From an uncultured Clostridia bacterium (GTDB lineage: Bacteria > Bacillota > Clostridia > Christensenellales > UBA1242), in assembly GCA_947626955.1 (NCBI GenBank), contig CANQUB010000004.1, positions 1 through 52,687 of the forward strand: 52,687 bases of DNA. Reading direction: 5' to 3'. Both the position numbers and the translations under genes were made by a program. Position 1 is the first letter of the stretch. Each line of letters starts with the position of its first letter. This document shows positions 9,964-34,275 of this stretch, one piece after another. Below the pieces are notes generated by a model. That model searched no databases and was not told the origin of the DNA. It saw nothing but the letters and a program-made list of their open reading frames with translations.

Positions 9964-10029
9964 TTTTTAATCTCCTTTATAGTTTTATAATAACATATTT
10001 TGCCAAGAACTCAAAGCAAATTAAAGCAT

Positions 10030-10068
10030 AAAAAATAGAGCCCGACAAAAATCGAACTCTACTTTTTT
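10030..10068 (-). terminator. Intrinsic terminator
   Basis: Minus strand aaaagtagagttcga-loop-tcgggctctatttttt directly after TAG at 10069-10071. Confidence 0.7.
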
Positions 10069-10343
10069 CTAAGCTTCCTTTTTGAACAGTATCAAGGCAA
10101 GAGCCAATACCACAACTGTGAGCGCCACCAAAACCACATTGGTAATCGCTGCGTAGCCAACTTGTTAGAAGAGAGTCTTTAACCGTCTTCATAACGCTAG
10201 CCAGCACTAAAACAAAGGAAATCAGCACCAAAGCAGCAACAACCAACTTTAAGATATTTAGCTATTGCTTGCCTTTTTACTTTTTATGACATCAACACCG
10301 AATTAATAATTTTAGCCGGCATAATTGTTGTCTCATTTTCCAT
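10069..10343 (-). pseudogene. Degraded small membrane protein gene
   Basis: ATG at 10343 runs into an early stop; hydrophobic segments LVVAALVLISFVLVLA and QVGYAAITNVVLVALTVVVLALALILFKKEA* are in different frames; terminator follows the second. Confidence 0.5.
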
Positions 10344-10620
10344 TTTTCAACTTTCTCTTCCAAAATTGCAAAATATACGCATTTTCCACTGTATTTAACA
10401 TGTATCTTGCGTTTTTTAAAATTGTTTTTTACTCAGTTTTTAATTAAATCTTCTAGTTCGTTTAGTTCAAACAATCCTTCATCTAATTGATTGTATTATT
10501 GTGAAATCCTTTCAGTTTCACCTTTGTATTAAGTTGTTCAAATTGATTGTATTATTCATATATTTTAGTCCTTTCAAATTTTGTATTTTCTTTAATATCT
10601 CAATCAATTATCTCTTTCTG

Positions 10621-10683
10621 AAGGCAACCCCTTGAAGTGTGACCAATTTCTTCCTTTTTCCCATTAAGAGGAGCAATGATTTA
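10621..10683. repeat. 63-bp direct repeat, copy 1
   Basis: aaggcaaccccttgaagtgtgaccaat...gagcaatgattta; 50/63 ungapped identities by manual count with 11861..11923; overlaps the GIY-YIG stop codon. Confidence 0.85.
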
Positions 10684-11349
10684 ATGCATTTCTAAGCGTT
10701 CTCTTATGTCATTAAGTATCTCGCCATTATATTTAAAATACCTTGGACCTGCAACATGACCATCTTTACCTAATTTTAATAGTATTTTGGCTAATGCAGT
10801 TAATGACATTACTTCGCCATTAAATTCGACTCGCCTATCATCAACAACTATTGCAAACTTTGATTCATCACGTGCAAATGTTATCTTTGAACCAACAGGA
10901 ATATTACATTTTTTAAATGTAAATGGAGATGCTTTTTCTTGAGCTTCTATTTTTACTGCTGTTGCGATATTTTCCTCTTCTTTCTCGATGTCTGATTGCC
11001 CTACAATTTTTAATTTGTCTTTTGTTCCATGTATTTCTGCCATGGCATCAAATAAGTCATAAGCATCTTCAGCAGACATCGCATAAAATTCCCTAACCCT
11101 TTTCTTACCATTAATAGTTTCTCTTGATCTTAAATCCGGATTAAGTTTATCAATTATAGAATGTATTTTCATATCGGTTAATCTAACATTCACTTCATAT
11201 GTTGCAAATATTCTAAATCCAAATGGAGTGCACTCACTTCTATTAAGTTGTTTTACTCTTTGCTCAACATCATCGGCATAACCAATTTTAACCCACTCAG
11301 GAAATGATGGGTTTGTTAAAATATAAATGTAACCTTTTTCTTCTGTCAT
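10681..11349 (-). CDS. T5orf172/GIY-YIG nuclease-family protein with RAMA-like C-terminal domain
   Basis: GYIYILTNPSFPEWVKIGYA...RVKQL...PF.F...REFY N-terminal domain; C-terminal VEFNGEVMSLTALA...GPRYFKYNGEILNDIR. Confidence 0.8.
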   Translation of the reverse strand: MTEEKGYIYILTNPSFPEWVKIGYADDVEQRVKQLNRSECTPFGFRIFATYEVNVRLTDMKIHSIIDKLNPDLRSRETINGKKRVREFYAMSAEDAYDLFDAMAEIHGTKDKLKIVGQSDIEKEEENIATAVKIEAQEKASPFTFKKCNIPVGSKITFARDESKFAIVVDDRRVEFNGEVMSLTALAKILLKLGKDGHVAGPRYFKYNGEILNDIRERLEMH

Positions 11350-11371
11350 ACAATACTCCTTACTTGCGTTT

Positions 11372-11400
11372 ATTATATCATAAATTTAAAATATTTTCAA
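11372..11400 (-). promoter_or_regulatory. sigmaA promoter of the GIY-YIG gene
   Basis: TTGAAA-17 bp-TATAAT with extended TG; -35 lies in an imperfect inverted repeat 11388..11419. Confidence 0.6.
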
Positions 11401-11458
11401 AACACTTGAAAAATATTTTCACAAGAGTTAAAACACAACTCAATTATGGGAGGCTCTT

Positions 11459-11713
11459 ATGGATTTAATTCAGGTTATTTTAAGTGCTTATGAAGATAAA
11501 AGAATAAACAAACATTCTAAAACTTATAAAATGCTATGCAGGGTTGTTGATGCTGAAAACAAACTGCGTGCTACTTTTGATGAAAAACAAAAAGAACTCT
11601 ATCATGAATTTGATATACTAACTCTCGAATATCAAGGTTTACAAGACATAGAACTAATCAAGTTCATTTTAGAATTCTTTCACACCGTGCATAATCCGAT
11701 GGATAAAATATAA
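11459..11713 (+). CDS. Small helical hypothetical protein
   Basis: 84 aa ORF with GGGAGG RBS, divergent from the GIY-YIG gene. Confidence 0.6.
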   Translation: MDLIQVILSAYEDKRINKHSKTYKMLCRVVDAENKLRATFDEKQKELYHEFDILTLEYQGLQDIELIKFILEFFHTVHNPMDKI

Positions 11714-11860
11714 TTATTTTTTCTTTCCTTGCATATCTCAAAAATTGATACATTGATAATTTTCACACTCCTCTACTTATATAAGGACATTATCTTTAAA
11801 AAAATTTAGGCAGTAAATGCAAAAATTAAAAATTTCTTTAATTTTTTTACAATCACAAAA

Positions 11861-11923
11861 AAGGCCACACCTTGAGGTGTGACCAATCTTTTCTTTTCCC
11901 TAATCAAAAGCAGCAATGATTTA
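11861..11923. repeat. 63-bp direct repeat, copy 2, containing the res terminator
   Basis: Minus strand TAAATCATTGCTG...GGTCACAC-CTCAAG-GTGTGGCC-TTTTTT hairpin plus U tract, starting 4 bp after the res stop. Confidence 0.85.
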
Positions 11924-11927
11924 TGTT

Positions 11928-14531
11928 TTATAGCTCTTTCAAAATAGTCAAAAATTCATCTAATGTTATGGAATCTGGATTACTTTGTATATCTTCTTTT
12001 GATACCATATAATAACGATAATCTGCACCGGCCTGAGATTGCCATATTTTTCCCAACTCTGCTTTTTCTCTACTATTATCGTTTGAAGCCAAATAATCAC
12101 CTTTTGTTTCAATCATTACAATTTTTCCGCTATTTGTCATAGCTATAAAATCTGGGTAATGATTTAAAAATCCATTAATATAAAACTCTTGCCTATCTAT
12201 ATTACGGTGCCACCATTTAATATTTGATAAAGATGCAACCTTTTCAATAACATCCAATTCAAAACCATTTACTGATTGTTCTGCTGTATATAACGATTTT
12301 TGAAGGATTTTAAATGCGTTGGTTGGTGAAATTACAGAGCTAAAACTAAAAGATGGCAAGCAATAAATTTTCCCCTGTTCAAGCCACTCTCTAAATTTTT
12401 TCCTTTGGTGATCCATTTGCAATAGTTTAATTTTAGCCTCAATTTTTGATGTGTATCCATAAATATTTTTTTCAAGTTCAGCAATTGCTTCGCTATTCAT
12501 ATTATCAACAACACGATCAATGTAATCAGCCAAGTCAGAACCAGAAACATTATCTAACTTTTCTAATTGGGTTTTTATTTGATATTTACAGTTTCTTTTT
12601 TTGCTTTCAGGTGGCAAAGAATCAAAGATTTCTTTGTAAAATTTATTTTCCACACCCTCAAGTCTTCTATATTTAGGACTCTCGTTCTTATTTACATCAA
12701 TTTCATAAAAACTTTCAGTGGCAGTAGTAAAATCAATTTCTATATCTTTATCCCTTAGAGTAAAATTATCGAGCAACATTTCATTTGTTAAAAGCACTTT
12801 ATAATCACTATCCAATTGTGTAAATATATTTGGTTTTGGTTTTACAAAAAATTGAGGTATTTTTAGAATTTTTACTTCATCTTTAAAATTTTCATACATA
12901 ACATAATTACTCATTTTACTTCTAACCTCCAAGGGTAAATTACCAAACACTTCACTACTAGACTCTTTTAAAATTTCATCATAAGAATCACTTTTTTCTT
13001 CTGCACTTGCAAGCATAGATGTAATTGTGTTAGATGCCTGCCCCTTTCTATTAATTAGCTCTTCCTTTACCACTTCATCGTTAAATTGTAAAAATTCTTC
13101 TTGTTTATCAAGATTTTCCATTTTACTTTGAAGCATATGAACTTTTACCGGTTCGACTTCTTGCGTTTCAGCAATTCGATATTCTTTTTCACTAAAACCT
13201 GCATTGTTCAAACCTGTAATAACTTTCTTAATTGTTGAATTAAAATCATTCGAAGAAGTTAAAACATAAGAAAGATTTAAGAATTTGCTATCATGTTGTT
13301 TAGTATAAGGAAGTCTAAGTACTCTACCTAAAATTTGTTCAACATCAACTACCGAAGTTTTATTGGCAAGGGTAGCTAAAATATATGCAAAAGGACAATC
13401 CCAACCTTCTTTTAAGGCATTCACGGTTATAATGTATTTTATTTTGCAATCATGAGATAATAAATTGACATTTTTTATTTCATTTATTTCAGCTGTCTTA
13501 ATTGCTATTTCCTCTTTTGGAATACCTAATCCTACCAACCTTTCTTTCAATTTCTCAAAAGTTTCTTTATTTTCATCAATTTTTGGTTGAGCTTGAAACA
13601 ATACAATAGGTCTTATATAAACCCCATTATTTTTCTCGTTTTCAAGAGCCATGGTTTCTAATTTTTCTCTCAAATCTATTGCGTCAATAATTACTTGCTC
13701 TTGTGATGGTCTATTATACAGAATCACAGGCAGCTTAACCATATTTTCAGCTTTTAATTGTGAGGCATCAACATATGAAATTATATTGCTATTTTTTCGA
13801 GGCGTGGCAGTTAAATCTAAAATGAAACTCGGATTTAAATTTTTCAACATTTCAACACTGAGATCCCCTGTTGTATGATGACTTTCATCAACTATAACTA
13901 CCGGAGATAATTGATTTAAAACTTGAATTAGAGCAGTATCATCAACATTTTCAATTTTTGTTGCTGGTGTTGGAGAATAGTTTGCAAAAGTATTTAAGTT
14001 TCCGTTTTCTTGATATATTTTTCTTGCCTCTTTATTTCTAATTCTCAAACTATCAAAGCTCATTACAATAATTGATAACTGCTCATTTATTTGTGTGATG
14101 TTAAATTGTTGCCCATCTAATGCCTGTTGTTTCGTATAAATTTGAACTCTTCCGTTAAAATCCGTTTCAATTTTTTGTCTATATGGATGAGAAGGGTTTG
14201 TTAAATTATTTAAAGTCTGTGTTAGTATTGCTTCTGATGGCACAAGCCAAACTACAACTTTTAATTTTTCGCTTGGCAAATTGTTAAAAATAACTCTTAA
14301 AGCATTACAAGCTAAAAAGGTTTTTCCACCACCTGTTGGAACTTTAAAACAAACATGTGGGGTATTGGAAATTGTGTTGTTGTATGTAGCAAGTCCATTA
14401 AATCCAACATTTACACCTTGGTTGAGCCAAAGCTTATTATATGCAGAAACAACACTACCTGTTTCATTTAATAATTGGCAATAACTTTCTAAATCATTAA
14501 TTACCTTTTTTTGAAATTTTTTAAGTTCCAT
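11928..14531 (-). CDS. res: Type III restriction enzyme Res subunit
   Basis: SF2 helicase motifs KVPTGGGKT, DESHH, LTATP, LKEGWDCP, EQILGRVLR; C-terminal PD-(D/E)xK nuclease YPDFI...IETKG. Confidence 0.9.
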   Translation of the reverse strand: MELKKFQKKVINDLESYCQLLNETGSVVSAYNKLWLNQGVNVGFNGLATYNNTISNTPHVCFKVPTGGGKTFLACNALRVIFNNLPSEKLKVVVWLVPSEAILTQTLNNLTNPSHPYRQKIETDFNGRVQIYTKQQALDGQQFNITQINEQLSIIVMSFDSLRIRNKEARKIYQENGNLNTFANYSPTPATKIENVDDTALIQVLNQLSPVVIVDESHHTTGDLSVEMLKNLNPSFILDLTATPRKNSNIISYVDASQLKAENMVKLPVILYNRPSQEQVIIDAIDLREKLETMALENEKNNGVYIRPIVLFQAQPKIDENKETFEKLKERLVGLGIPKEEIAIKTAEINEIKNVNLLSHDCKIKYIITVNALKEGWDCPFAYILATLANKTSVVDVEQILGRVLRLPYTKQHDSKFLNLSYVLTSSNDFNSTIKKVITGLNNAGFSEKEYRIAETQEVEPVKVHMLQSKMENLDKQEEFLQFNDEVVKEELINRKGQASNTITSMLASAEEKSDSYDEILKESSSEVFGNLPLEVRSKMSNYVMYENFKDEVKILKIPQFFVKPKPNIFTQLDSDYKVLLTNEMLLDNFTLRDKDIEIDFTTATESFYEIDVNKNESPKYRRLEGVENKFYKEIFDSLPPESKKRNCKYQIKTQLEKLDNVSGSDLADYIDRVVDNMNSEAIAELEKNIYGYTSKIEAKIKLLQMDHQRKKFREWLEQGKIYCLPSFSFSSVISPTNAFKILQKSLYTAEQSVNGFELDVIEKVASLSNIKWWHRNIDRQEFYINGFLNHYPDFIAMTNSGKIVMIETKGDYLASNDNSREKAELGKIWQSQAGADYRYYMVSKEDIQSNPDSITLDEFLTILKEL

Positions 14532-14540
14532 TATTTCTCC

Positions 14541-16154
14541 TTATAATTTTGCTATGTCTCTAGGTATTTTTTTAAATATAATGCCGTATTGAGTAAGCAT
14601 TTCTTTTGATAAATTGCAAACATCGGCATATATTACATAATTAGCACATTTTGTTTTAATCCCCGATAAAAAATCTATATCTAACGTTGTTCTTTTATCT
14701 TTTTCGTAATAAAAATAATATGCAGTATCATTATTCGAACCCAAATAATATTCATTATCATTGTCATTTTTTATTATAGCTTTTTTAGTTTCCATAAAAT
14801 AGATATATCTTCTTATTTCTTCGATTTGCAATTCTTCATTTAAATTTTTACCATCTCTAAAAATTGGCTCGCCTAATTCATAGTAACTAAAACTCCCTTT
14901 TATTCCTGCAATAGCCTTATCGCCTTCACCATATCCTTGAATAACTCTTTTTACACGCTCTGCTGTAATTGTTTCAGTATAATCCATCATCTCAACAAGA
15001 ATAAATTTACGGTTACCATTATCCCGTTTATTAAGATTAAGTACGGCGTGTGCAGTTGTACCCGAACCGGCAAATGAATCAAGAATTATTGAGTTTGAAT
15101 TGTTTACAAATTTTAAAAGATACTCAATAAGAGATACAGGCTTAGGATAATCAAAAACTTTGGCACCGTTTAAGATTAAGTCAACGTCCTTACCAGCCTC
15201 TTCTGTTGTACTTACACCCACTGATTCATCAATTAAGTTTGGTGGAACTTCTGGTTCGTAATTTGCTCTTTTATATGATAATACTAAATTATTAGATAAA
15301 TTAATAGTAGTGCCTTTTTCAATATTTTCATCTAGTGTGCTTTGAATCCAAATAAATTTATTTTCAAAGGTAACATCATTAACATTTTTACCATCTTTGA
15401 TAATCATATCATTTAATAATTTATTTGGAAATTTTTGGGTCCCATAAGTTCCAGCTTTGTAAACACCATCCTTACCTTTAAAGTTTATAACCCCTGATTT
15501 AAAATTTAATCTTTTCAATGAATTTTGTGGTTTAGTAAATGGATCATCACTAGGACTAGATTTTTGAACTCCTAAATATCTTTGATTATTTTTATTTTTT
15601 TCATAACAAACTATGTATTCAAGATTTTTCTTTATTTTATTAGACAAATTCGGAGGAGTTGCAGACTTATACCACATCCATTGACCTATAAAGTTTGTTC
15701 TACCGAATATTTCATCACAAATAAGTTTCAAGTTGGCAAGTTCATTATCATCTATACTTATAAAAATTCTACCATTTTCATTTAAAAGTTTTTGTAGAAG
15801 TTTTAATCTTGGATACATCATACAGAGCCATTTATCGTGTCTCGATAAATCTTCTCCTTCAGGTCCAACAACCTCTCCCAACCATTTTTTTATCCTTGGA
15901 TCATCTACATTATCACTATACACCCATTGACCTTCTTTTTTCCCCGTGTTATAAGGAGGATCAATATAAACACAGTCAACCAAACCTTCATATTGAGGTA
16001 ATAAAGATTTCAATGCTAAAAGATTATCCCCATGTATTATCATATTTTCACTTTTTTCAGAATTAAAAGTATACTTTTTTTTCAACGTCCTATAAGGAAC
16101 TTCCTGATGATGGTTTATAACCTTTTCTTTCCCGATCCAATTTAATGTTGGCAT
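14541..16154 (-). CDS. mod: Type III R-M Mod subunit (beta-class adenine methyltransferase)
   Basis: MPTLNWIGK start, GDNLLALK, YIDPPYNTG (motif IV), HDKWLCMMYPRL, FDYPKP, DSFAGSGTTAHA (motif I). Confidence 0.92.
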   Translation of the reverse strand: MPTLNWIGKEKVINHHQEVPYRTLKKKYTFNSEKSENMIIHGDNLLALKSLLPQYEGLVDCVYIDPPYNTGKKEGQWVYSDNVDDPRIKKWLGEVVGPEGEDLSRHDKWLCMMYPRLKLLQKLLNENGRIFISIDDNELANLKLICDEIFGRTNFIGQWMWYKSATPPNLSNKIKKNLEYIVCYEKNKNNQRYLGVQKSSPSDDPFTKPQNSLKRLNFKSGVINFKGKDGVYKAGTYGTQKFPNKLLNDMIIKDGKNVNDVTFENKFIWIQSTLDENIEKGTTINLSNNLVLSYKRANYEPEVPPNLIDESVGVSTTEEAGKDVDLILNGAKVFDYPKPVSLIEYLLKFVNNSNSIILDSFAGSGTTAHAVLNLNKRDNGNRKFILVEMMDYTETITAERVKRVIQGYGEGDKAIAGIKGSFSYYELGEPIFRDGKNLNEELQIEEIRRYIYFMETKKAIIKNDNDNEYYLGSNNDTAYYFYYEKDKRTTLDIDFLSGIKTKCANYVIYADVCNLSKEMLTQYGIIFKKIPRDIAKL

Positions 16155-16185
16155 AAAAACTCCTTTGTAAAAATTTATTTAGCAC

Positions 16186-16194
16186 ATTATAGCA
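16186..16194 (-). promoter_or_regulatory. Extended -10 promoter of mod-res
   Basis: TGCTATAAT upstream of the AAAGGAG RBS and mod ATG. Confidence 0.55.
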
Positions 16195-16225
16195 TACTAA
16201 TTCATATTTTGTATATGATAAAATC

Positions 16226-16253
16226 AAAAAAACAGCAAAAATTAATTTTGCTG
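16226..16253 (-). terminator. Weak intrinsic terminator after rnlB
   Basis: cagcaaaa-ttaat-ttttgctg followed by a T tract on the minus strand. Confidence 0.55.
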
Positions 16254-16270
16254 CCTATTCAATTATTTTA

Positions 16271-16606
16271 CTAATCTAAATATATAAACTTTTTAATACT
16301 TTTGGATAATGTAGAACTTTCAAGCACTTCATTATTTTGCTTGAAATATTCGTGCGTATTTTCTTTTATTAACTCAGATACATATCTTGGATTTATTACT
16401 CTTGAGGTTACTTCATTCTCTTTATTAAATATTAATTCTATAAATCGATTAAAAGAAAAACCATTCCTATAAAACATATCTACAAGCACTCTTCCTTTAT
16501 TAGACACTTTTCTTATTTCGTCATATAGATAATACATATCTTCATTTGATAACAATAAAACATAACTTTCATAGTTATTAATCTTAAATAACATAAATTT
16601 TTTCAT
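16271..16606 (-). CDS. rnlB: RnlB-family antitoxin
   Basis: GRVLVDMFYRNGFSFNRFIEL and LESSTLS resemble E. coli RnlB (GEILFDLLCANGPEWNRFVTL; LEASVLS) as recalled; directly downstream of the RnlA-like gene. Confidence 0.82.
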   Translation of the reverse strand: MKKFMLFKINNYESYVLLLSNEDMYYLYDEIRKVSNKGRVLVDMFYRNGFSFNRFIELIFNKENEVTSRVINPRYVSELIKENTHEYFKQNNEVLESSTLSKSIKKFIYLD

Positions 16607-16615
16607 ATTAATTTC

Positions 16616-17632
16616 CTAAAATAAGATTTTATAAGTTTCTTCGATTACTTCCAAAATTTCATCTCTTAATTCTTCTGCCTCTTTATAATTTTGAATAACT
16701 CTCATTTGTGCAGGATCAATGGTGCTGTGCGTATATACATTTCGTTTATCACAATATGTATCATAAAGTTTATATAGTGCATCTTTATCTTTCTGTGAAA
16801 TATCTGTCCTTAAATCAATCTCTGTCAGACCATTTTTTTTGTACCTTTTAAATGGGCTTAAGTTTTGCTTTAATGTAAAATGAAATTTTTGTGTAAGCAA
16901 TTTCTTTATATATCCTTCTAGTGCTTTAAAAACCCCGGTTAGAGGTGAAGAATAATCTTCTGATTCTATTTTGGAATTAATAAAACTAAACGAACCAGAA
17001 ATTGATTTCAATTGAGCCTCTTCCATATAATTATATGAAGTTTTTAAGATTTGCTTAATTCTACTACGTATAATATTAGCACTGTAAGCCTCTTCGCTAA
17101 ACTGTTTCCCCAAATCTACATAATCATCAAACGAAATTATATCCAAACTGGCAATAAAAGTTAATACAATATTAAAAGTATAATATGGCTTACCCTGAAT
17201 AACAATATTATTACTGTTCTTTGTAATCGTTATTTTATCATTGTTAAAACTTGTAAGTATATACCTATTTTCTATAATTGATATTGTTATTTTCCCAGCA
17301 AATTCAGATCGTATATAGTCTAGTATATCATTTATAATTTCTGCATTTTTAATAACAAGTTGATTAGAAAATTTATCATCTTTAATTCCATATTCTTCTA
17401 AATATTTTATAAGAACAAAAGCCAACTCTTTATTTTTACCAACACAAATAGGATTAATGCCATCTTTTAATAAATGAATATCTACTTGACAATCCATTCT
17501 ATTAACAAAAAATTTACATATAATTTTTGTTTGAGAATATCTTATTTCCTTCTTTGTAAAATTAGGATTTTCATCAAAAAATTTTTCCAATAAGTATTTT
17601 ACACTGTCTTTATTTATAAGTATCTTAGACAT
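16616..17632 (-). CDS. rnlA: RnlA/LsoA-family HEPN endoribonuclease toxin
   Basis: VDI...KDG...GKNKELA, D.ITI...IQGKP, DYS..L...KALEG.IK and catalytic R-x4-H (RNVYTH) parallel E. coli RnlA; similar length. Confidence 0.85.
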   Translation of the reverse strand: MSKILINKDSVKYLLEKFFDENPNFTKKEIRYSQTKIICKFFVNRMDCQVDIHLLKDGINPICVGKNKELAFVLIKYLEEYGIKDDKFSNQLVIKNAEIINDILDYIRSEFAGKITISIIENRYILTSFNNDKITITKNSNNIVIQGKPYYTFNIVLTFIASLDIISFDDYVDLGKQFSEEAYSANIIRSRIKQILKTSYNYMEEAQLKSISGSFSFINSKIESEDYSSPLTGVFKALEGYIKKLLTQKFHFTLKQNLSPFKRYKKNGLTEIDLRTDISQKDKDALYKLYDTYCDKRNVYTHSTIDPAQMRVIQNYKEAEELRDEILEVIEETYKILF

Positions 17633-17634
17633 AT

Positions 17635-18927
17635 TTACCTCCCAGTTCTATATACATCTACTGCACATAATTTATTATTCACAGACCCAATTTTAAAATA
17701 AATATTGTCATTTTCTTTAAGATGAATTTTTATTTTTTTTAGTGAGAAGTACATAGATTTTACTCCATTGTATTGAATAAAGCCAAACTTTTTATCATAA
17801 TTAATTTTTGAAATGGTCCCAAATTTCAATTCATCTGTCTTTTTGATTACTTCTAAAGCACGATTCAATAATTGTTTTATATTAGGTGGTCTATCTCTAT
17901 TTAAACAAAATTCTTTTTCTGCAAACCTTAATTCTTCTTGTATAAACCAACCAAATGAAGACCTATAATATAATGTGGCCTCATAAAACTCTTTTGCCTT
18001 ATCGAGTTCGTTTGAATTTTCAAATAGTATCCCTAAATCGAATATCAAATTTATCATTTTTTCTTTGTCAAAGTTGTCACATAGGATAGCTTTACAAGAA
18101 TAATAAAGTGCTTTACTAACATCTCCACTTGAAAAATATAAGTTTGCTAATTTATGATACATATACCAAAAATTATGTTTTTCAGCTATCTCTTTATAGC
18201 TTTCTATATCCTCTTTTCTACCACTTAATAAACATCCACAATATAATTTTCTCGCAGCAAACCACAATCCATTTCCATAGTGTAGTTTTTCAAATGTGTT
18301 CAGTGCAACATCACACAATTCCATACATTCTTCAAATTTTTCTATTCTTTCTAAGCATTTCGTTTTAACTTGATAATAAAATTCTTTATAGGATGCCATC
18401 TCATAGGTTTGACCATTCTGGGCCTGAATTTCTTTGGGCTCAATTGGTAATAATTCTGAATTCAGTTTATTTATCCATTTCAATTCTTGATAATAACTTG
18501 TTGCAGCTCTATGTCTTAAAACTTGCACAACCTTATATATAGTCAACACATAAGGATTAAACATAAAATGTTCAACATCAAGTTGTTCGCAATTTTCTGT
18601 AATTAATTCAGCTATTGATATAAAATGTTCAAATGTTTCCTCAGAATAAATGTATGAACTTATTTCTGCAGAATACAAACAATATAAGTAAGCATCATTA
18701 ACATATTTTCTTTTCTTAACCTCTTCATAATCAAAAGTGCGTATTTTATCAATAAATAACTGTGCTTGTTCATGCTTTCTTAGTTTCTGACCTAACTTGC
18801 TTAGAATAAAGGAATCGGACAAATTAGCTTCTTCTAAAATCTTTAAATATTCAGAAAAAGCATCTTCCATAGAAGAAGATTCTAATAATTCCGCCTTTTC
18901 AAATTTTAACTTTAACTGTTCATTCAT
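17635..18927 (-). CDS. Helical-repeat (TPR-like) protein with C-terminal cold-shock/OB-fold domain
   Basis: TPR-like segments (WYMYHKLANLYFSSGDVSKALYYSCKAI; LGILFENSNELDKAKEFYEA); last ~60 aa GTISKINYDKKFGFI...YF...L...D.I.F.I......AVDV match the CSD pattern. Confidence 0.75.
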   Translation of the reverse strand: MNEQLKLKFEKAELLESSSMEDAFSEYLKILEEANLSDSFILSKLGQKLRKHEQAQLFIDKIRTFDYEEVKKRKYVNDAYLYCLYSAEISSYIYSEETFEHFISIAELITENCEQLDVEHFMFNPYVLTIYKVVQVLRHRAATSYYQELKWINKLNSELLPIEPKEIQAQNGQTYEMASYKEFYYQVKTKCLERIEKFEECMELCDVALNTFEKLHYGNGLWFAARKLYCGCLLSGRKEDIESYKEIAEKHNFWYMYHKLANLYFSSGDVSKALYYSCKAILCDNFDKEKMINLIFDLGILFENSNELDKAKEFYEATLYYRSSFGWFIQEELRFAEKEFCLNRDRPPNIKQLLNRALEVIKKTDELKFGTISKINYDKKFGFIQYNGVKSMYFSLKKIKIHLKENDNIYFKIGSVNNKLCAVDVYRTGR

Positions 18928-18933
18928 AATTTC

Positions 18934-18942
18934 ATTATAACA
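18934..18942 (-). promoter_or_regulatory. Extended -10 promoter 6 bp upstream of the TPR-CSD start (probable leaderless mRNA)
   Basis: TGTTATAAT-gaaatt-ATG; no Shine-Dalgarno. Confidence 0.55.
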
Positions 18943-19029
18943 TTAAAAAAATAATTTTTACTATACTTTATAAAATATTTATTTAATTTATTTTAGCATC
19001 AAAATTTTATATTGTTTAAAAACTAATAA

Positions 19030-19911
19030 TCAAATCTTAAAATACTCTAACCATTGTTTATATTTATCTTGGGCGGCGAGGCAGGTGTCAGTTAGATAGC
19101 CTCGCTCTGTTTTCCATTCTTTTAAACCACGATAATAATAAAATTTAAACTCATCCTCTATTATAAATGGAATAATATTATTTGCAAGGCATTCTTTAAA
19201 CATAATCAAACGCCCTACTCTGCCATTGCCATCTTGAAAAGGATGTATTCTCTCAAACTGCTCGTGAAATTCAATTATATCATTGATGGTTTTGGACTGT
19301 TTTGCATTATACTTTGTCAAAAGTTTTTTAATTTCTTCTGCGACTTTTTCCGGTGGACAGGTTTCGTTGCCACCAACTTCATTTGGTCTGGATTTATATT
19401 CACCAACATTAAACCAATCTTTTCGGCTATCGCTCGTACCTGATTTTAATGTGTAATGTAACTCTTTAATAAATTTTTCTGTTAAAGGCTTTTTCGCATT
19501 ATCAATAACCATATCAACGCACTTAAAGTGATTATTCGTTTCCACAATATCATCAACCTTCACGCCATTGGTTTCGCCGAGTGTGTTGGTTTCAAAAATC
19601 ATTCGAGTTTGGTCTTCAGTAAGCGTGCTGCCCTCAATGTGATTTGAATTATAAGTGAGTGCAATTTGCGTTTTATGATAAATTCCACCCTTGAGTTTCA
19701 TATCCTTTTCTTCTTTTAATCTATTAAGAAGTGGATTATCACTAAATTCTTTATGCTCTACCCTTTCTGGTTTTTCTGCATCCTCCGGAATAATCCAAGT
19801 TTTGCCTTTAAGTTCAGCTCCTTTTACTCTGCCTTGCTGACAATAATTTCGCACAGACCTTTCACTTATATTCCATTTTTTTGCAATTTCACTTGCCGTT
19901 AAAAATCCCAT
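19030..19911 (-). CDS. Fic-family protein with N-terminal excisionase-like HTH
   Basis: LTASEIAKKWNISERSVRNYCQQGRV HTH; Fic motif HPFQDGNGRVGR; inhibitory helix SNHIEG. Confidence 0.9.
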   Translation of the reverse strand: MGFLTASEIAKKWNISERSVRNYCQQGRVKGAELKGKTWIIPEDAEKPERVEHKEFSDNPLLNRLKEEKDMKLKGGIYHKTQIALTYNSNHIEGSTLTEDQTRMIFETNTLGETNGVKVDDIVETNNHFKCVDMVIDNAKKPLTEKFIKELHYTLKSGTSDSRKDWFNVGEYKSRPNEVGGNETCPPEKVAEEIKKLLTKYNAKQSKTINDIIEFHEQFERIHPFQDGNGRVGRLIMFKECLANNIIPFIIEDEFKFYYYRGLKEWKTERGYLTDTCLAAQDKYKQWLEYFKI

Positions 19912-19937
19912 AAATTACCTCATTTTCATACAAATAA

Positions 19938-19966
19938 ATTATATCCTATATCGGCAATTAAGTCAA
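19938..19966 (-). promoter_or_regulatory. sigmaA promoter of HTH-Fic
   Basis: TTGACT-17 bp-TATAAT; spacer contains ATTGCCGATAT. Confidence 0.75.
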
Positions 19967-19984
19967 TAAAATTACATATATATT

Positions 19985-20002
19985 ATTGCCGATATCGGCA
20001 AT
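19985..20002. promoter_or_regulatory. Perfect 18-bp palindromic operator candidate
   Basis: ATTGCCGATATCGGCAAT; partial copy ATATCGGCAAT at 19948..19958. Confidence 0.65.
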
Positions 20003-31570: not shown

Positions 31571-32194
31571 TTAGAAATTTAATACCACAAAACTTTTTAT
31601 GGTTATTGGAAGGATGAAGCTATAAAACAAGCACAGCACAAATAGTATGGCCACCAAAACTAGCAGCCACATGAAGTAGTTATTTTCTTTAAAACTTACC
31701 ATGAATTTGAGTTTATATTTAGATTGGAGCTTGGCACGCTCAGCCCCCACCACCAATATCATGGTCATTACAAAGAAGTTTGCAAGGTTGACTGGAAGGA
31801 TAAATAAAATTGCATTCAAAATTCCGGCAAGTCCGTATGTCGAAATGACAGCGGCCGAGCTTAGCACAATTAGTGCCGACTGATAACCAAGAAAGATGAA
31901 GCCAATGATGCTGGTATATTTAGTCAGCGTGAGCACAAATATTATAAGCACGCACAAAAGTATATTTATAAGCCTTGAATAAAATATAGATGTGTACTCA
32001 GCATTTCCCGTGATATAAGAAAACATATTTCTATCGGCCGAACTAAGCAAAGCACTGTAGCGGTAGCCGGTGACACTGATGTATATCCCTACTGCAATAC
32101 CGAGCAAGGCAAAAATGGTGGCCAGAACATAATAAAAAGCATTCGATTTAAAATGCTCTTTAACTTGATAAAAATCAAAACCCTGCCTGCTCAT
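31571..32194 (-). CDS. spoIIM: Stage II sporulation protein M-like membrane protein
   Basis: About 5 TM helices, ILP.N motif, position between spo0A-like gene and dacF, sigmaE-like -10. Confidence 0.65.
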   Translation of the reverse strand: MSRQGFDFYQVKEHFKSNAFYYVLATIFALLGIAVGIYISVTGYRYSALLSSADRNMFSYITGNAEYTSIFYSRLINILLCVLIIFVLTLTKYTSIIGFIFLGYQSALIVLSSAAVISTYGLAGILNAILFILPVNLANFFVMTMILVVGAERAKLQSKYKLKFMVSFKENNYFMWLLVLVAILFVLCLFYSFILPITIKSFVVLNF

Positions 32195-32227: not shown

Positions 32228-32995
32228 CTAAATTAATTCAATTCTTTGGTCGCCATATGAGCTGTTAATCTCTTTGTCAAGAACCAGCCTCGACACTAGC
32301 ATGGATATGGCCATATTGTTATTCATGTCGTAGGTTAGATAAGACTTTAGTTTCATATTATCTGGCGTAACCGGGGCGTCCTTTAGCTTGCTGTATGCAC
32401 AGTAAAGCGCCGTCCGCATACTCTTTTCCACCGCGCACACCGTCTTCTTGTGGTCGGCGGCAATCTCTTTGTAGATGTCCATTGTGGAATACCTAAACGG
32501 GAAACTTGAATAGGCCTTCATTATGGCGTCGACATAATATTTAAACCCATCATGCTTGCTTGAAAACATGAAGTTACATAGCAGCTCGCATATCTTTGAC
32601 CGCAGCAAATTTTCATTCCTTGCCGGCGAGGCCTCAATCTTTTTCTTCTCGGCCAAAAGCACCATGGCCAACTTGAGATCAAAATTTTCGTCACCAAGAT
32701 TGTCAATGAAAGAGTATTCGCTTGACTCATACTCCCCGCTTGCAATCAAAACAATGTTCTTGCAAAAATGGGTATGCACCATTTTTAGCAAAAATTCCAG
32801 CCTTTCGGCCTTTTCACATTCGGCATTGAAGATTATTAAATCGACCTTGTTGTCGGTCAGCCAATGCAAAAGTGTTTTATATTCATAGTCCATATACTGG
32901 CATACAAAACCTAGATTGTATAGATGAGTAGGCTCAACATAATCCTTAATTTTTTTGTTCTTATCTACTATTAATGTTTTTAAAAATAAATTCAA
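32228..32995 (-). CDS. spo0A: Diverged Spo0A-like protein (pseudo-receiver + Spo0A C-terminal DNA-binding domain)
   Basis: Canonical recN-spoIVB-spo0A position; C-terminal ICELL......H.GFKY..DAI...IY.EIA.....T...VEKSMR.AL..AY matches Spo0A_C; TTG start after AAGGGAG. Confidence 0.75.
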   Translation of the reverse strand: MNLFLKTLIVDKNKKIKDYVEPTHLYNLGFVCQYMDYEYKTLLHWLTDNKVDLIIFNAECEKAERLEFLLKMVHTHFCKNIVLIASGEYESSEYSFIDNLGDENFDLKLAMVLLAEKKKIEASPARNENLLRSKICELLCNFMFSSKHDGFKYYVDAIMKAYSSFPFRYSTMDIYKEIAADHKKTVCAVEKSMRTALYCAYSKLKDAPVTPDNMKLKSYLTYDMNNNMAISMLVSRLVLDKEINSSYGDQRIELI

Positions 32996-33102
32996 AAGTG
33001 AAACTCCCTTGCTGCCTACTATCGGCACACAAAAAGCATTCTACACCTTTTATTTGACTTTGGCAAACAATTTTTCAAATTTTTACAAAATTATTTAAAA
33101 AT

Positions 33103-34275
33103 TTAGTTATCGATCATCCAATCGATGTAAACTCCAAAGCCTTTTGTTGGGTCGCTGACAAAGACATGAGTGACCGCTCCAACCAGCTTTCCGCCTTGAA
33201 TTATCGGGCTTCCGCTCATCCCTTGAACAATCCCACCTGTGGCCTCGATGAGCCTTGGGTCGATAACTTTTATGACCATGCTCTTTGTGTCAGACTTACT
33301 TTGATGGTTTAGTTTTATTATCTCGATGTCATATTCATTGGGCTGATCGCCATCAATAGTGGTCAAGATCTTAGCTTTGCCTGTTTTAACGGTATTTCTA
33401 AACCCCACCTCGATTGGCGAAGAGGATATATTTTTCAAATACTCTTCCCCAACATTTCCATAGACACCGTAGTCATTATTATTGTCAAGCTCGCCCGCCT
33501 GGCTGCCATTTTTTAAAAACAGCCCCCTAAGCTCGCCCGGATTTCCACGAGTGCCTTTGTTGACACCAACGATATTGCATTTATAGATATATCCGCCCGA
33601 GATTGGCAGAGTTTTGCCGGTGTCTATATCGCTTATTGGATGCCCAAGGGCACCGAAACGATTATTGTCACAGCGAACATAAGTAAGTGTGCCAACTCCG
33701 GCCGCATTGTCACGAATCCATAGCCCAAGCCTATAGGTTTGCGTCGAAGCCTCCAAGACTGGAATAGCACTTTCCATAAAAGTCTTGCCGTCTCGAACAA
33801 TTTCAAGGGCCACTGGGTTTCCGTTGTTTTTATTGATGGTTTCTTGCAAACCAGCCGCACTCGTAATATCCACGCCATCAACGCTCTTTACCACATCTCC
33901 AACCTTGACATTTTTATTTTCAAGCGGCTTCACAACCCCGGTCAAGGTCTGCACGCTGCCGATTGCCACCACCATCACCCCGTCACATTCCAAAGTAAAG
34001 CCAAGAGGAAGGCCGCCGGGATAAACCATGATCTTGCGGTCATCAACTTCTTCTTTATCATTTTTAGAAAATATATCTTTTATTATATCTCGAAGAGACG
34101 GCAGTGCAGCTTCGGCCACTGCCCCTCTTGTGCTGGCCTCGACCACCACTTCACTTTGGCAAGCCATAAAATTGCTATGACACAAAAGTATTGCAAGCAG
34201 CAAAACCATGGCCACCGCGGACTTAAATATTGGTTTGAGTATTCTATCAAAAAAACAAAAAACCACTTTTTTCAT
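33103..34275 (-). CDS. spoIVB: SpoIVB peptidase (S55)
   Basis: PGG.PLG, PDZ domain, GLWIRD.AAGVGTLT, FGALGHPI.D.DT, TGGIVQGMSGSPIIQ.GKLVGAVTHVFV.DP. Confidence 0.95.
   Translation of the reverse strand: MKKVVFCFFDRILKPIFKSAVAMVLLLAILLCHSNFMACQSEVVVEASTRGAVAEAALPSLRDIIKDIFSKNDKEEVDDRKIMVYPGGLPLGFTLECDGVMVVAIGSVQTLTGVVKPLENKNVKVGDVVKSVDGVDITSAAGLQETINKNNGNPVALEIVRDGKTFMESAIPVLEASTQTYRLGLWIRDNAAGVGTLTYVRCDNNRFGALGHPISDIDTGKTLPISGGYIYKCNIVGVNKGTRGNPGELRGLFLKNGSQAGELDNNNDYGVYGNVGEEYLKNISSSPIEVGFRNTVKTGKAKILTTIDGDQPNEYDIEIIKLNHQSKSDTKSMVIKVIDPRLIEATGGIVQGMSGSPIIQGGKLVGAVTHVFVSDPTKGFGVYIDWMIDN

Follow-up and report, generated by a model that had tools for sequence, protein, structure and literature searches.

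A degenerate Spo0A paralogue with a predicted pseudo-receiver domain beside spoIVB in an uncultured Clostridia bacterium that encodes a canonical Spo0A elsewhere

The window, the whole stretch of 52,687 nucleotides that was analysed, comes from an uncultured Clostridia bacterium and contains a series of genes on one strand in the order recN, spoIVB, the gene under study, a weakly matching spoIIM-like gene, a PBP5-type carboxypeptidase gene, an M50 peptidase gene, scpA, scpB, ytfJ and a second carboxypeptidase gene, with spoIIIAA, spoIIIAB, spoIIIAC-AD, spoIIIAE and spoIIIAH farther upstream. This is essentially the sporulation-gene context that an earlier note, made from the sequence alone, had described. 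The upstream neighbour spoIVB (33103..34275, minus strand) scores 390.2 bits with TIGR02860 (cut-off 305) and 286.5 bits with Peptidase_S55, and the membrane protein gene downstream (31571..32194, minus strand), which begins 33 nt beyond the gene under study, is called spoIIM-like on just 21 bits with TIGR02831 (cut-off 100). The position directly downstream of spoIVB is a matter of context and not a defining property of a Spo0A protein.

The gene between these two neighbours encodes a degenerate Spo0A paralogue, as defined by Pfam and NCBIfam scores and by its orthologues in the genus. The coding sequence occupies 32228..32995 on the minus strand and yields 255 residues from a TTG codon at 32995, in agreement with the full-length reading frame of the earlier note; the same frame is open over 32228..33028 (minus strand) and would give 266 residues if started at the GTG at 33028. 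The TTG at 32995 is the likely start because a ribosome-binding site, AAGGGAG (33004..33010, minus strand, read from the sequence), lies 8 nt upstream and because the N-termini of the orthologues agree, with 10 genus orthologues starting at the aligned position. Residue numbers refer to the 255-residue form throughout.

Upstream of the gene, a sigma-70-type promoter-like site, TTGCCA-17 nt-TAGAAT, is located at 33038..33066 (minus strand) with 10 of 12 matches, in a scan that overall does not rise above shuffled sequences (9 sites found, 8.2 expected). All 11 orthologous upstream regions of the genus share an aligned -35 TTTG and extended -10 TGTGnTAnAAT, and the paralogue is predicted to have a conserved sigma-A-type promoter of its own, from which it is probably transcribed together with the spoIIM-like gene. 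Just upstream of the -35 sequence, at approximately 33067..33098 (minus strand), an A/T-rich element with the consensus AaTTTTtAATAAtTTTGTAAAAt is kept in 11 of the 11 genus loci while the remaining spacer has diverged; it may be either an UP-element-like sequence or an operator. Tandem TTGTAAAA / TTGAAAAA repeats are conserved upstream of the gene, the TTGTAAAA repeats at 33067-33098, and no TCGA-core boxes are present in the promoter of the paralogue. A composite motif, TTTGTAAAA-N1-2-TTTGA, occurs three times in the genome, at contig C4 and twice at contig C22; the whole-genome control gives a match in 1 of 20 mononucleotide shuffles, and within the window at least one match is found in 20 of 100 dinucleotide shuffles. 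The motif is rejected as a shared operator or regulon signal, as the 11 genus genomes give 11 matches and the reversed control also gives 11.

Only Spo0A_C (PF08769) is detected in the paralogue by Pfam, with 39.5 bits (cut-off 25), and the match covers residues 146-218 of the 266-residue form and positions 1-74 of the 104 positions of the profile; no match to Response_reg (PF00072, gathering cut-off 30.2 bits) is obtained at E-values up to 1. The NCBIfam equivalog profile of Spo0A, TIGR02875, gives 20.5 bits, which is below its cut-off of 200 (19.8 bits in the six-frame genome search). In a profile-profile comparison using hhalign, however, the 11 genus orthologues match 22 canonical Spo0A proteins from the same order over the full length and both domains, with 95.3 % probability and an E-value of 2.2e-8. 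An AlphaFold2 model built on the alignment of the 11 orthologues (pLDDT 85.2, pTM 0.69) contains an N-terminal domain of five strands (β1 5-10, β2 30-35, β3 53-57, β4 81-85, and β5 95-98) and four helices, including α5 (105-122), after which six further helices come. Helix α4 is absent from the model, in which β4 and β5 are joined by a 9-residue loop. A prediction of the homodimer from two copies of the paralogue and the same alignment gives a score of 0.00 in a run that had no controls, and speaks neither for nor against a dimer.

The two halves of the model resemble the two domains of a response regulator. In Foldseek searches, the N-terminal half matches receiver domains with a probability of 1.00 and TMt values of 0.58-0.72 (0.62-0.72 for 7w9h_A, 9of7_B, and 2qxy_A), and the C-terminal half matches the effector domain structures 1lq1_D (TMt 0.84, rmsd 2.7) and 1fc3_C (TMt 0.77); 1fc3 and 1lq1 are also retrieved in a PDB profile search. 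A pseudo-receiver domain is accordingly placed at residues 1-122 (32630..32995, minus strand) on the basis of AlphaFold2, Foldseek and hhalign, and a Spo0A_C-type helix-turn-helix effector domain at residues 128-240 (32276..32614, minus strand) on the basis of Pfam, the PDB profile search and Foldseek. Because the Pfam match breaks off after 74 of the 104 profile positions, the part that follows the recognition helix may have lost its Spo0A-like working.

The earlier note had proposed that the phospho-acceptor aspartate has become asparagine, that the switch threonine is replaced, that the conserved Lys-Pro is missing and that the recognition helix is altered, and the strings on which it relied (LIVDKNKK, KVDLIIFNAEC, NIVLIASGE, and VCAVEKSMRTAL) are all present. 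The alignment of the two profiles bears out each of these proposals: D11-K12 of the paralogue pairs with D11-E12 of canonical Spo0A, N57 with the invariant acceptor D57, A85 with the invariant S85 (a serine, S86, follows directly), and D98-N99 with the invariant K107-P108. The codon of Asn57 lies at 32825..32827 (minus strand), and N57 is the final residue of β3 in the model, so that no aspartate is found at the acceptor position in this genome by either hhalign or the model. D52 was considered as an alternative acceptor and rejected, as it sits at the start of β3, where it corresponds to the P-D motif that is common in canonical receivers. When the residues of a phosphorylatable receiver (DD, D, T/S, and K) are sought, D11-K12, N57, A85, and D98 are found in their places, i.e., four of the five are missing, including the acceptor, and D11 is kept. 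The loss of the acceptor aspartate, the second acidic residue, the Thr/Ser, the Lys-Pro and helix α4 suggests that the paralogue would not be switchable by aspartyl phosphorylation in this genome. The recognition helix (residues 186-205, VCAVEKSMRTAL..., 32381..32440, minus strand), which aligns to the canonical SKVERAIRHAIE, reads V-E-K-S-M-R in place of V-E-R-A-I-R, with the changes R to K, A to S, and I to M.

The paralogue is present with an intact frame in all 11 genus genomes (252-285 residues as called), always in the order spoIVB, paralogue, spoIIM-like gene, and in 10 congener loci a gene of 206-208 residues stands after the paralogue in the same order. The amino-acid identity of the paralogue within the genus is 31-53 %, and the active-site columns vary: the acceptor column contains N in four, D in five, and E in two of the 11 orthologues (Asp is missing in 6 of 11), the Thr/Ser column contains S/T in seven, A in two, and G in two, and Lys is found in its column in one. 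In no orthologue of the 11 is the set of five active-site residues complete. The degenerate receiver that the earlier note described is upheld for this genome, with the corrections that D11 is kept, that S86 follows A85 and that the acceptor column varies across the genus; since Asp occupies that column in five of 11 orthologues and Ser/Thr its own column in seven of 11, some relatives could conceivably still accept a phosphoryl group. Twenty-seven columns are invariant, including A188, E190, M193, and R194 of the recognition helix as well as N49, V51, R65, C78, N104, D106, and L107 of the N-domain, which form motifs that differ from those of canonical Spo0A.

In the Nei-Gojobori analysis, pN is below pS in 55 of 55 paralogue pairs, with dS saturated (not computable) in most of them; where dS can be computed, omega is about 0.13-0.47, and the closest pair (G003-G005, 74 % identity) gives a dN of 0.186, a dS of 1.46, and an omega of about 0.13. 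The paralogue is under purifying selection and does not evolve neutrally. It does evolve fast; when the same genomes are paired, its dN is about 2-3 times as high as the dN of canonical spo0A. Averaged over pairs, identity amounts to 33 % in its N-domain, compared with 48 % in the C-domain and 56 % in the helix-turn-helix, the best-kept part, and the corresponding values of canonical Spo0A in the genus are 60 % for the N-domain and 96 % for the C-domain.

The canonical protein with which these comparisons are made is encoded elsewhere in the same genome. When the assembly of the window (1.225 Mb, 64 contigs, 93 % complete) is searched for other Spo0A copies, as the earlier note had proposed, PF08769 and TIGR02875 each find two places, namely the paralogue and G000:C31:809-1579(-), a gene on contig C31 that encodes 256 residues and scores 260.9 bits with TIGR02875 (cut-off 200). 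This protein has all of the active-site residues (D11, D57, S85, and K107-P108) and the helix SKVERAIRHAIEVAW, and it aligns to the solved receiver and effector domains of Spo0A (1dz3 and 1lq1). Both genes, a canonical Spo0A above the cut-off and a degenerate copy, are present in 10 of the 10 other genus genomes searched. Contamination is an unlikely source of contig C31, because the 10 congeners all carry the canonical copy, because valS, which lies upstream of the C31 spo0A, has a match next to canonical spo0A in 8 of the 10 loci of the congeners, and because the G+C content of the contig is the same as that of the rest of the assembly. The valS-spo0A synteny is found in none of 29 loci outside the genus. 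Conserved TTCGAC motifs, which are 0A-box-like, are present in the canonical spo0A promoter regions of the genus and absent from the promoter of the paralogue. In the genome as a whole, TGTCGAA occurs 181 times, compared with about 160 expected from base composition, with no informative clustering. A small Cys-rich ORF downstream of canonical spo0A is common to 12 loci (including G027, G036, and G040), which suggests that the relocated canonical locus predates the family. Taken with the domain comparison, the second, canonical copy and the conservation of the paralogue make it highly probable that the gene beside spoIVB is a conserved degenerate Spo0A paralogue and not the Spo0A of the organism. 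The earlier note had named a canonical spo0A elsewhere and neutral evolution of the present copy as findings that together would tell against its proposals; the former is found and the latter is not seen, which leaves its second proposal, a repurposed paralogue, standing.

A search of the 1.2-Mb genome with Response_reg finds the canonical C31 Spo0A and no other receiver-domain protein. The orphan kinases that the earlier note had suggested looking for are not found in the HisKA and HATPase_c searches: HATPase_c matches four proteins only, namely GyrB, a second GyrB/ParE-like protein, SpoIIAB and MutL, and no histidine kinase is found in the genome. Of 15 further genomes of the family in which HisKA was sought, 12 likewise yield no match, among them three with a completeness of 99 %. 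Across the gut Clostridia of about 1 Mb in the family of the window, most genomes searched show no histidine kinase. With no detectable kinase for the canonical Spo0A, the trigger of sporulation in this lineage is a separate and testable question.

Pseudo-receiver and aspartate-less-receiver proteins are a known class of atypical response regulators (PMC12632262; survey in PMC4395418), of which ChxR is an example (PMC3960148). According to the accessible text of PMC12632262, a pseudo-receiver is one that lacks at least one of the five active-site residues, with the proteins that lack the acceptor aspartate as a subset; by this definition the predicted receiver of the paralogue counts as a pseudo-receiver and, in the present genome, falls into the aspartate-less subset. 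The paralogue resembles the members of this class in its predicted receiver-type fold with active-site residues missing, its fused DNA-binding output and the phosphorylation-independent action that would be expected of it, and differs from the known members in that its output is Spo0A_C and in that the whole of helix α4 is lost in the model. The word Spo0A does not occur in the accessible text of PMC12632262, and its two occurrences in that of PMC4395418 concern Asp-to-Glu mutants of Spo0A and a reference, with no natural Spo0A-type pseudo-receiver; no description of such a protein was found by title or abstract in the literature searched. In protein databases, the relatives of the paralogue fall into 20 clusters that are unnamed or labelled hypothetical. 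A profile search of 1.84 billion representatives returns 13 matches at E-values up to 1e-30 and 707 at E-values up to 1e-3. In a Pfam scan of 26 relatives, Spo0A_C is found and a receiver is not detected in 14 of 20 proteins of 236-264 residues; stand-alone Spo0A_C proteins account for two of the 26, and proteins with three or four tandem Spo0A_C domains for four.

The comparison system is canonical Spo0A (TIGR02875; 1LQ1 and 1FC3 for the C-domain, 1DZ3 and 1QMP for the receiver), with which the paralogue shares the two-domain layout, the Spo0A_C fold, the V-E-x-x-x-R helix and the site directly downstream of spoIVB. Unlike canonical Spo0A, it lacks the acceptor Asp, the Thr/Ser, the Lys-Pro and helix α4, has the three substitutions in its recognition helix, leaves the C-terminal third of its Spo0A_C domain unmatched by Pfam, and coexists with a true Spo0A in the same genome. 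More than one spo0A-type gene per genome has been reported: in the available text of Galperin et al. 2022 (bioRxiv 10.1101/2022.02.25.481979), two spo0A genes are present in 10 of 118 Spo0A-positive Firmicutes genomes, all of them Clostridiales, and Anaerostipes hadrus has three. No copy is said to lack receiver residues in the section of that work on paralogous spo0A, whereas here the copy at the presumably ancestral locus is degenerate. A further parallel is the isolated DNA-binding domain of Spo0A, which, as described in the available text of PMC3485338, binds its targets without phosphorylation when the inhibitory contacts of the receiver are gone. The natural C-domain-only genes near or beside spoIVB in G020, G027, and G036 are comparable with this domain; the paralogue differs from it and is not simply a freed effector, because it keeps a conserved N-domain with a predicted fold. 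The same source reports that G2, C4, and G5 of TGTCGAA are contacted specifically. The search of the 0A box literature yielded no paper on residue-level DNA contacts of the Spo0A recognition helix.

On balance, we favour the reading that a Spo0A paralogue with a pseudo-receiver has been repurposed here as a DNA-binding regulator that works independently of phosphorylation, and consider it somewhat more probable than all other readings together; for the mechanism taken by itself, the chances are about even. DNA binding, independence from phosphorylation and any role of the paralogue in sporulation are inferred from sequence and predicted structure. In this reading, the paralogue would be made from its own conserved sigma-A-type promoter, probably on one transcript with the spoIIM-like gene, and would bind DNA through its altered recognition helix (V-E-K-S-M-R for V-E-R-A-I-R) without phosphorylation; its activity would therefore depend on how much of it is present, or on a partner or ligand that the conserved N-domain binds. 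It would work alongside canonical Spo0A and not as its replacement, and its target may be 0A boxes, a changed box, or the TTGTAAAA / TTGAAAAA repeats before its own gene.

The strongest competitor, which we regard as rather unlikely, is that the paralogue acts mainly through canonical Spo0A, by competition for or co-occupancy of 0A boxes or by pairing with the Spo0A receiver, and thereby tunes the entry into sporulation. Of the V-E-R-x-x-R recognition motif, the paralogue retains E and the second R, and some other control is needed because the canonical Spo0A is the sole receiver protein found and no kinase is found; the heterodimer that the atypical regulator WhiI forms with BldM in Streptomyces provides a precedent (PMC4125116, accessible text). 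The promoter of the paralogue itself, however, contains no TCGA-core boxes. Additionally, the usual dimer face of receivers is formed by α4-β5-α5, and α4, a part of this face, is missing from the model. A broader proposal, which we consider improbable, starts from the histidine kinases not found in most family genomes searched and from canonical Spo0A as the one receiver protein found in this genome: the entry into sporulation would be governed not by a phosphorelay but by a Spo0A pair, in which an orphan canonical Spo0A is accompanied by a kinase-independent pseudo-receiver paralogue transcribed from its own conserved promoter. The paralogue would recognise another, A/T-rich box, for which the tandem TTGTAAAA / TTGAAAAA repeats would be a candidate site, and the changes in its recognition helix would fit a loss of contacts to the central C-G of TGTCGAA.

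The history of the locus was addressed by comparing the positions of spoIVB with those of Spo0A. Canonical Spo0A is found directly beside spoIVB in eight genomes from other families of the order (G025, G026, G029, G030, G033, G035, G037, and G038), and in each of these, G025 excepted, another full-length match exceeds the cut-off at a different place in the genome. In the 25 genomes examined of the family of the window, the canonical copy never adjoins spoIVB. A full-length degenerate paralogue occupies the site in the 11 genus genomes and in G013, G014, G016, G018, and G021; a C-domain-only ORF lies near the site in G020 and directly beside spoIVB in G027 and G036, which belong to two other families; and nothing Spo0A-like is found beside spoIVB in G011, G012, G015, G017, G019, G022, G023, and G024, with a degenerate copy located elsewhere in G011 (L017). 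When a wider paralogue profile that includes other genera is searched in a sample of 101 genomes (58 genera) of the family, 84 of the 101 yield two or more Spo0A-like matches, and in 33 of the 101 a match to the profile scores 100 bits or higher, where canonical copies reach about 85 at most.

A quick tree of 66 rows, which carries a long-branch caveat, groups the degenerate copies of the family (SH-aLRT 90) on long branches outside all canonical copies, and the canonical copies linked to spoIVB form one clade (100) that is not joined to the degenerate ones. The AU test does not reject a tree in which the degenerate copies share one clade with the canonical copies linked to spoIVB (delta lnL 0.32, p 0.495). 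From synteny, which is the basis of the proposal, the paralogue would descend from the ancestral spoIVB-linked gene; a fast-evolving paralogue would have stayed at the ancestral site, with the canonical Spo0A now encoded on C31 downstream of valS.

The same distribution can be read as decay, i.e., the gene could be a functionless relic of the ancestral spo0A that is open by chance or through its operon position. No Spo0A-like gene is found beside spoIVB in 8 of the 14 other genera first sampled, and the copies of two genomes elsewhere in the family contain a single TAA, on account of which the paralogue appears dispensable; the fast evolution, the variable active-site columns and the C-domain-only remnants in G020, G027, and G036 agree with decay as well. 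A relic would, however, hardly be expected to remain open in 11 of 11 genomes at saturated dS, with pN below pS in every pair and omega values that reach as low as about 0.13, to preserve 27 invariant columns, among them residues of the recognition helix and N-domain motifs, or to retain a conserved promoter of its own with a ribosome-binding site and to give a confident model, and we consider this explanation unlikely. The first proposal of the earlier note, that this gene is the only Spo0A of the cell and starts sporulation without phosphorylation through a changed 0A box, is very improbable and is set aside: although the gene lies at the spo0A site of many Firmicutes, directly downstream of spoIVB and exactly where eight genomes of related families carry the canonical gene, and although no histidine kinase is found, a canonical Spo0A with all active-site residues, a near-invariant recognition helix and conserved TTCGAC motifs in its promoter region is encoded on C31 and has a counterpart in 10 of 10 congeners.

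A repurposed, conserved paralogue in a genome with a working Spo0A elsewhere remains the preferred reading, and it bears on how sporulation genes are read in these bacteria. Spo0A usually serves as a marker of endospore formation and is regarded as its master switch, single and highly conserved; in this case the textbook locus holds a degenerate copy and the working copy is located elsewhere, so an annotation based on synteny would misname the gene, and a judgement of whether Spo0A is intact made at the spoIVB locus would misread the sporulation potential of these uncultured gut bacteria. With the paralogue, Spo0A_C would join the output domains known from pseudo-receiver regulators. Additionally, one and the same locus presents a natural series, from the canonical gene through the pseudo-receiver and the C-domain alone to complete loss, which may be used to study the escape of a regulator from phosphorylation control.

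Searching the 1.2-Mb genome for two-component signalling proteins reveals a single Response_reg match, which is the canonical Spo0A itself (contig C31:809-1579). The HATPase_c search of the whole genome returns four matches, namely GyrB (C3:56688-58601), a GyrB/ParE-like protein (C2:19177-21117), SpoIIAB (C1:74002-74442), and MutL (C1:1833-3779), and therefore no histidine kinase is found in this genome. HisKA is absent from the search results in 12 of the 15 other genomes of the family, three of these 12 being 99 % complete.

The Spo0A_C domain occurs in several architectures among the proteins matched in the metagenomic profile search. Three to four copies are arranged in tandem in P0037, P0039, P0040, and P0047 (428-495 aa), and proteins of approximately 90-140 aa consisting of Spo0A_C only are numerous (P0053, P0056, and many more). 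When 20 Spo0A_C proteins of 236-264 aa were sampled, only 3 reached the Response_reg Pfam cut-off. Additionally, a different arrangement of the duplicate is present in one genus of the family (genome G017), in which two Spo0A-like genes lie in tandem with approximately 300 bp between them (C36:2553-3236 and C36:3540-4196).

The upstream region of the Spo0A paralogue, the degenerate pseudo-receiver gene of the window, has the TTTGTAAAA-TTTTGA motif in common with that of a gene on contig C22 (5257-6846, minus strand), which encodes a bacterial mTERF-domain protein of 529 aa (PF02536, 55.6 bits) and is preceded by two copies of the motif 52 bp apart (C22:6843-6909). The gene adjoining the paralogue (window 31571-32194, minus strand) is termed spoIIM-like on the basis of its position and the membrane-protein character of its product, which matches no Pfam family and reaches only 21 bits against TIGR02831, where the cut-off is 100. 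Elsewhere in the window, a 10-kb stretch (10001-20000) exhibits a G+C content of 0.25-0.31, compared with approximately 0.40-0.46 in the remainder, and contains large ORFs of 867, 537, and 430 aa; this stretch is possibly an island gained by acquisition.

At 12 loci from four families (L026, L027, L029-L032, L034, L035, L038, L042, L043, and L048), the canonical spo0A is followed immediately on its downstream side by a small ORF, approximately 120-245 aa in length, that is Cys-rich (CxxC-type). Upstream of canonical spo0A itself, TTCGAC motifs resembling the 0A box and an extended -10 element, gTGnTAatAT, are both kept across the genus (L003:1580-1847, the upstream region in this genome, and the congener loci), and the conservation of these sequence elements suggests that the canonical spo0A is autoregulated as in Bacillus.
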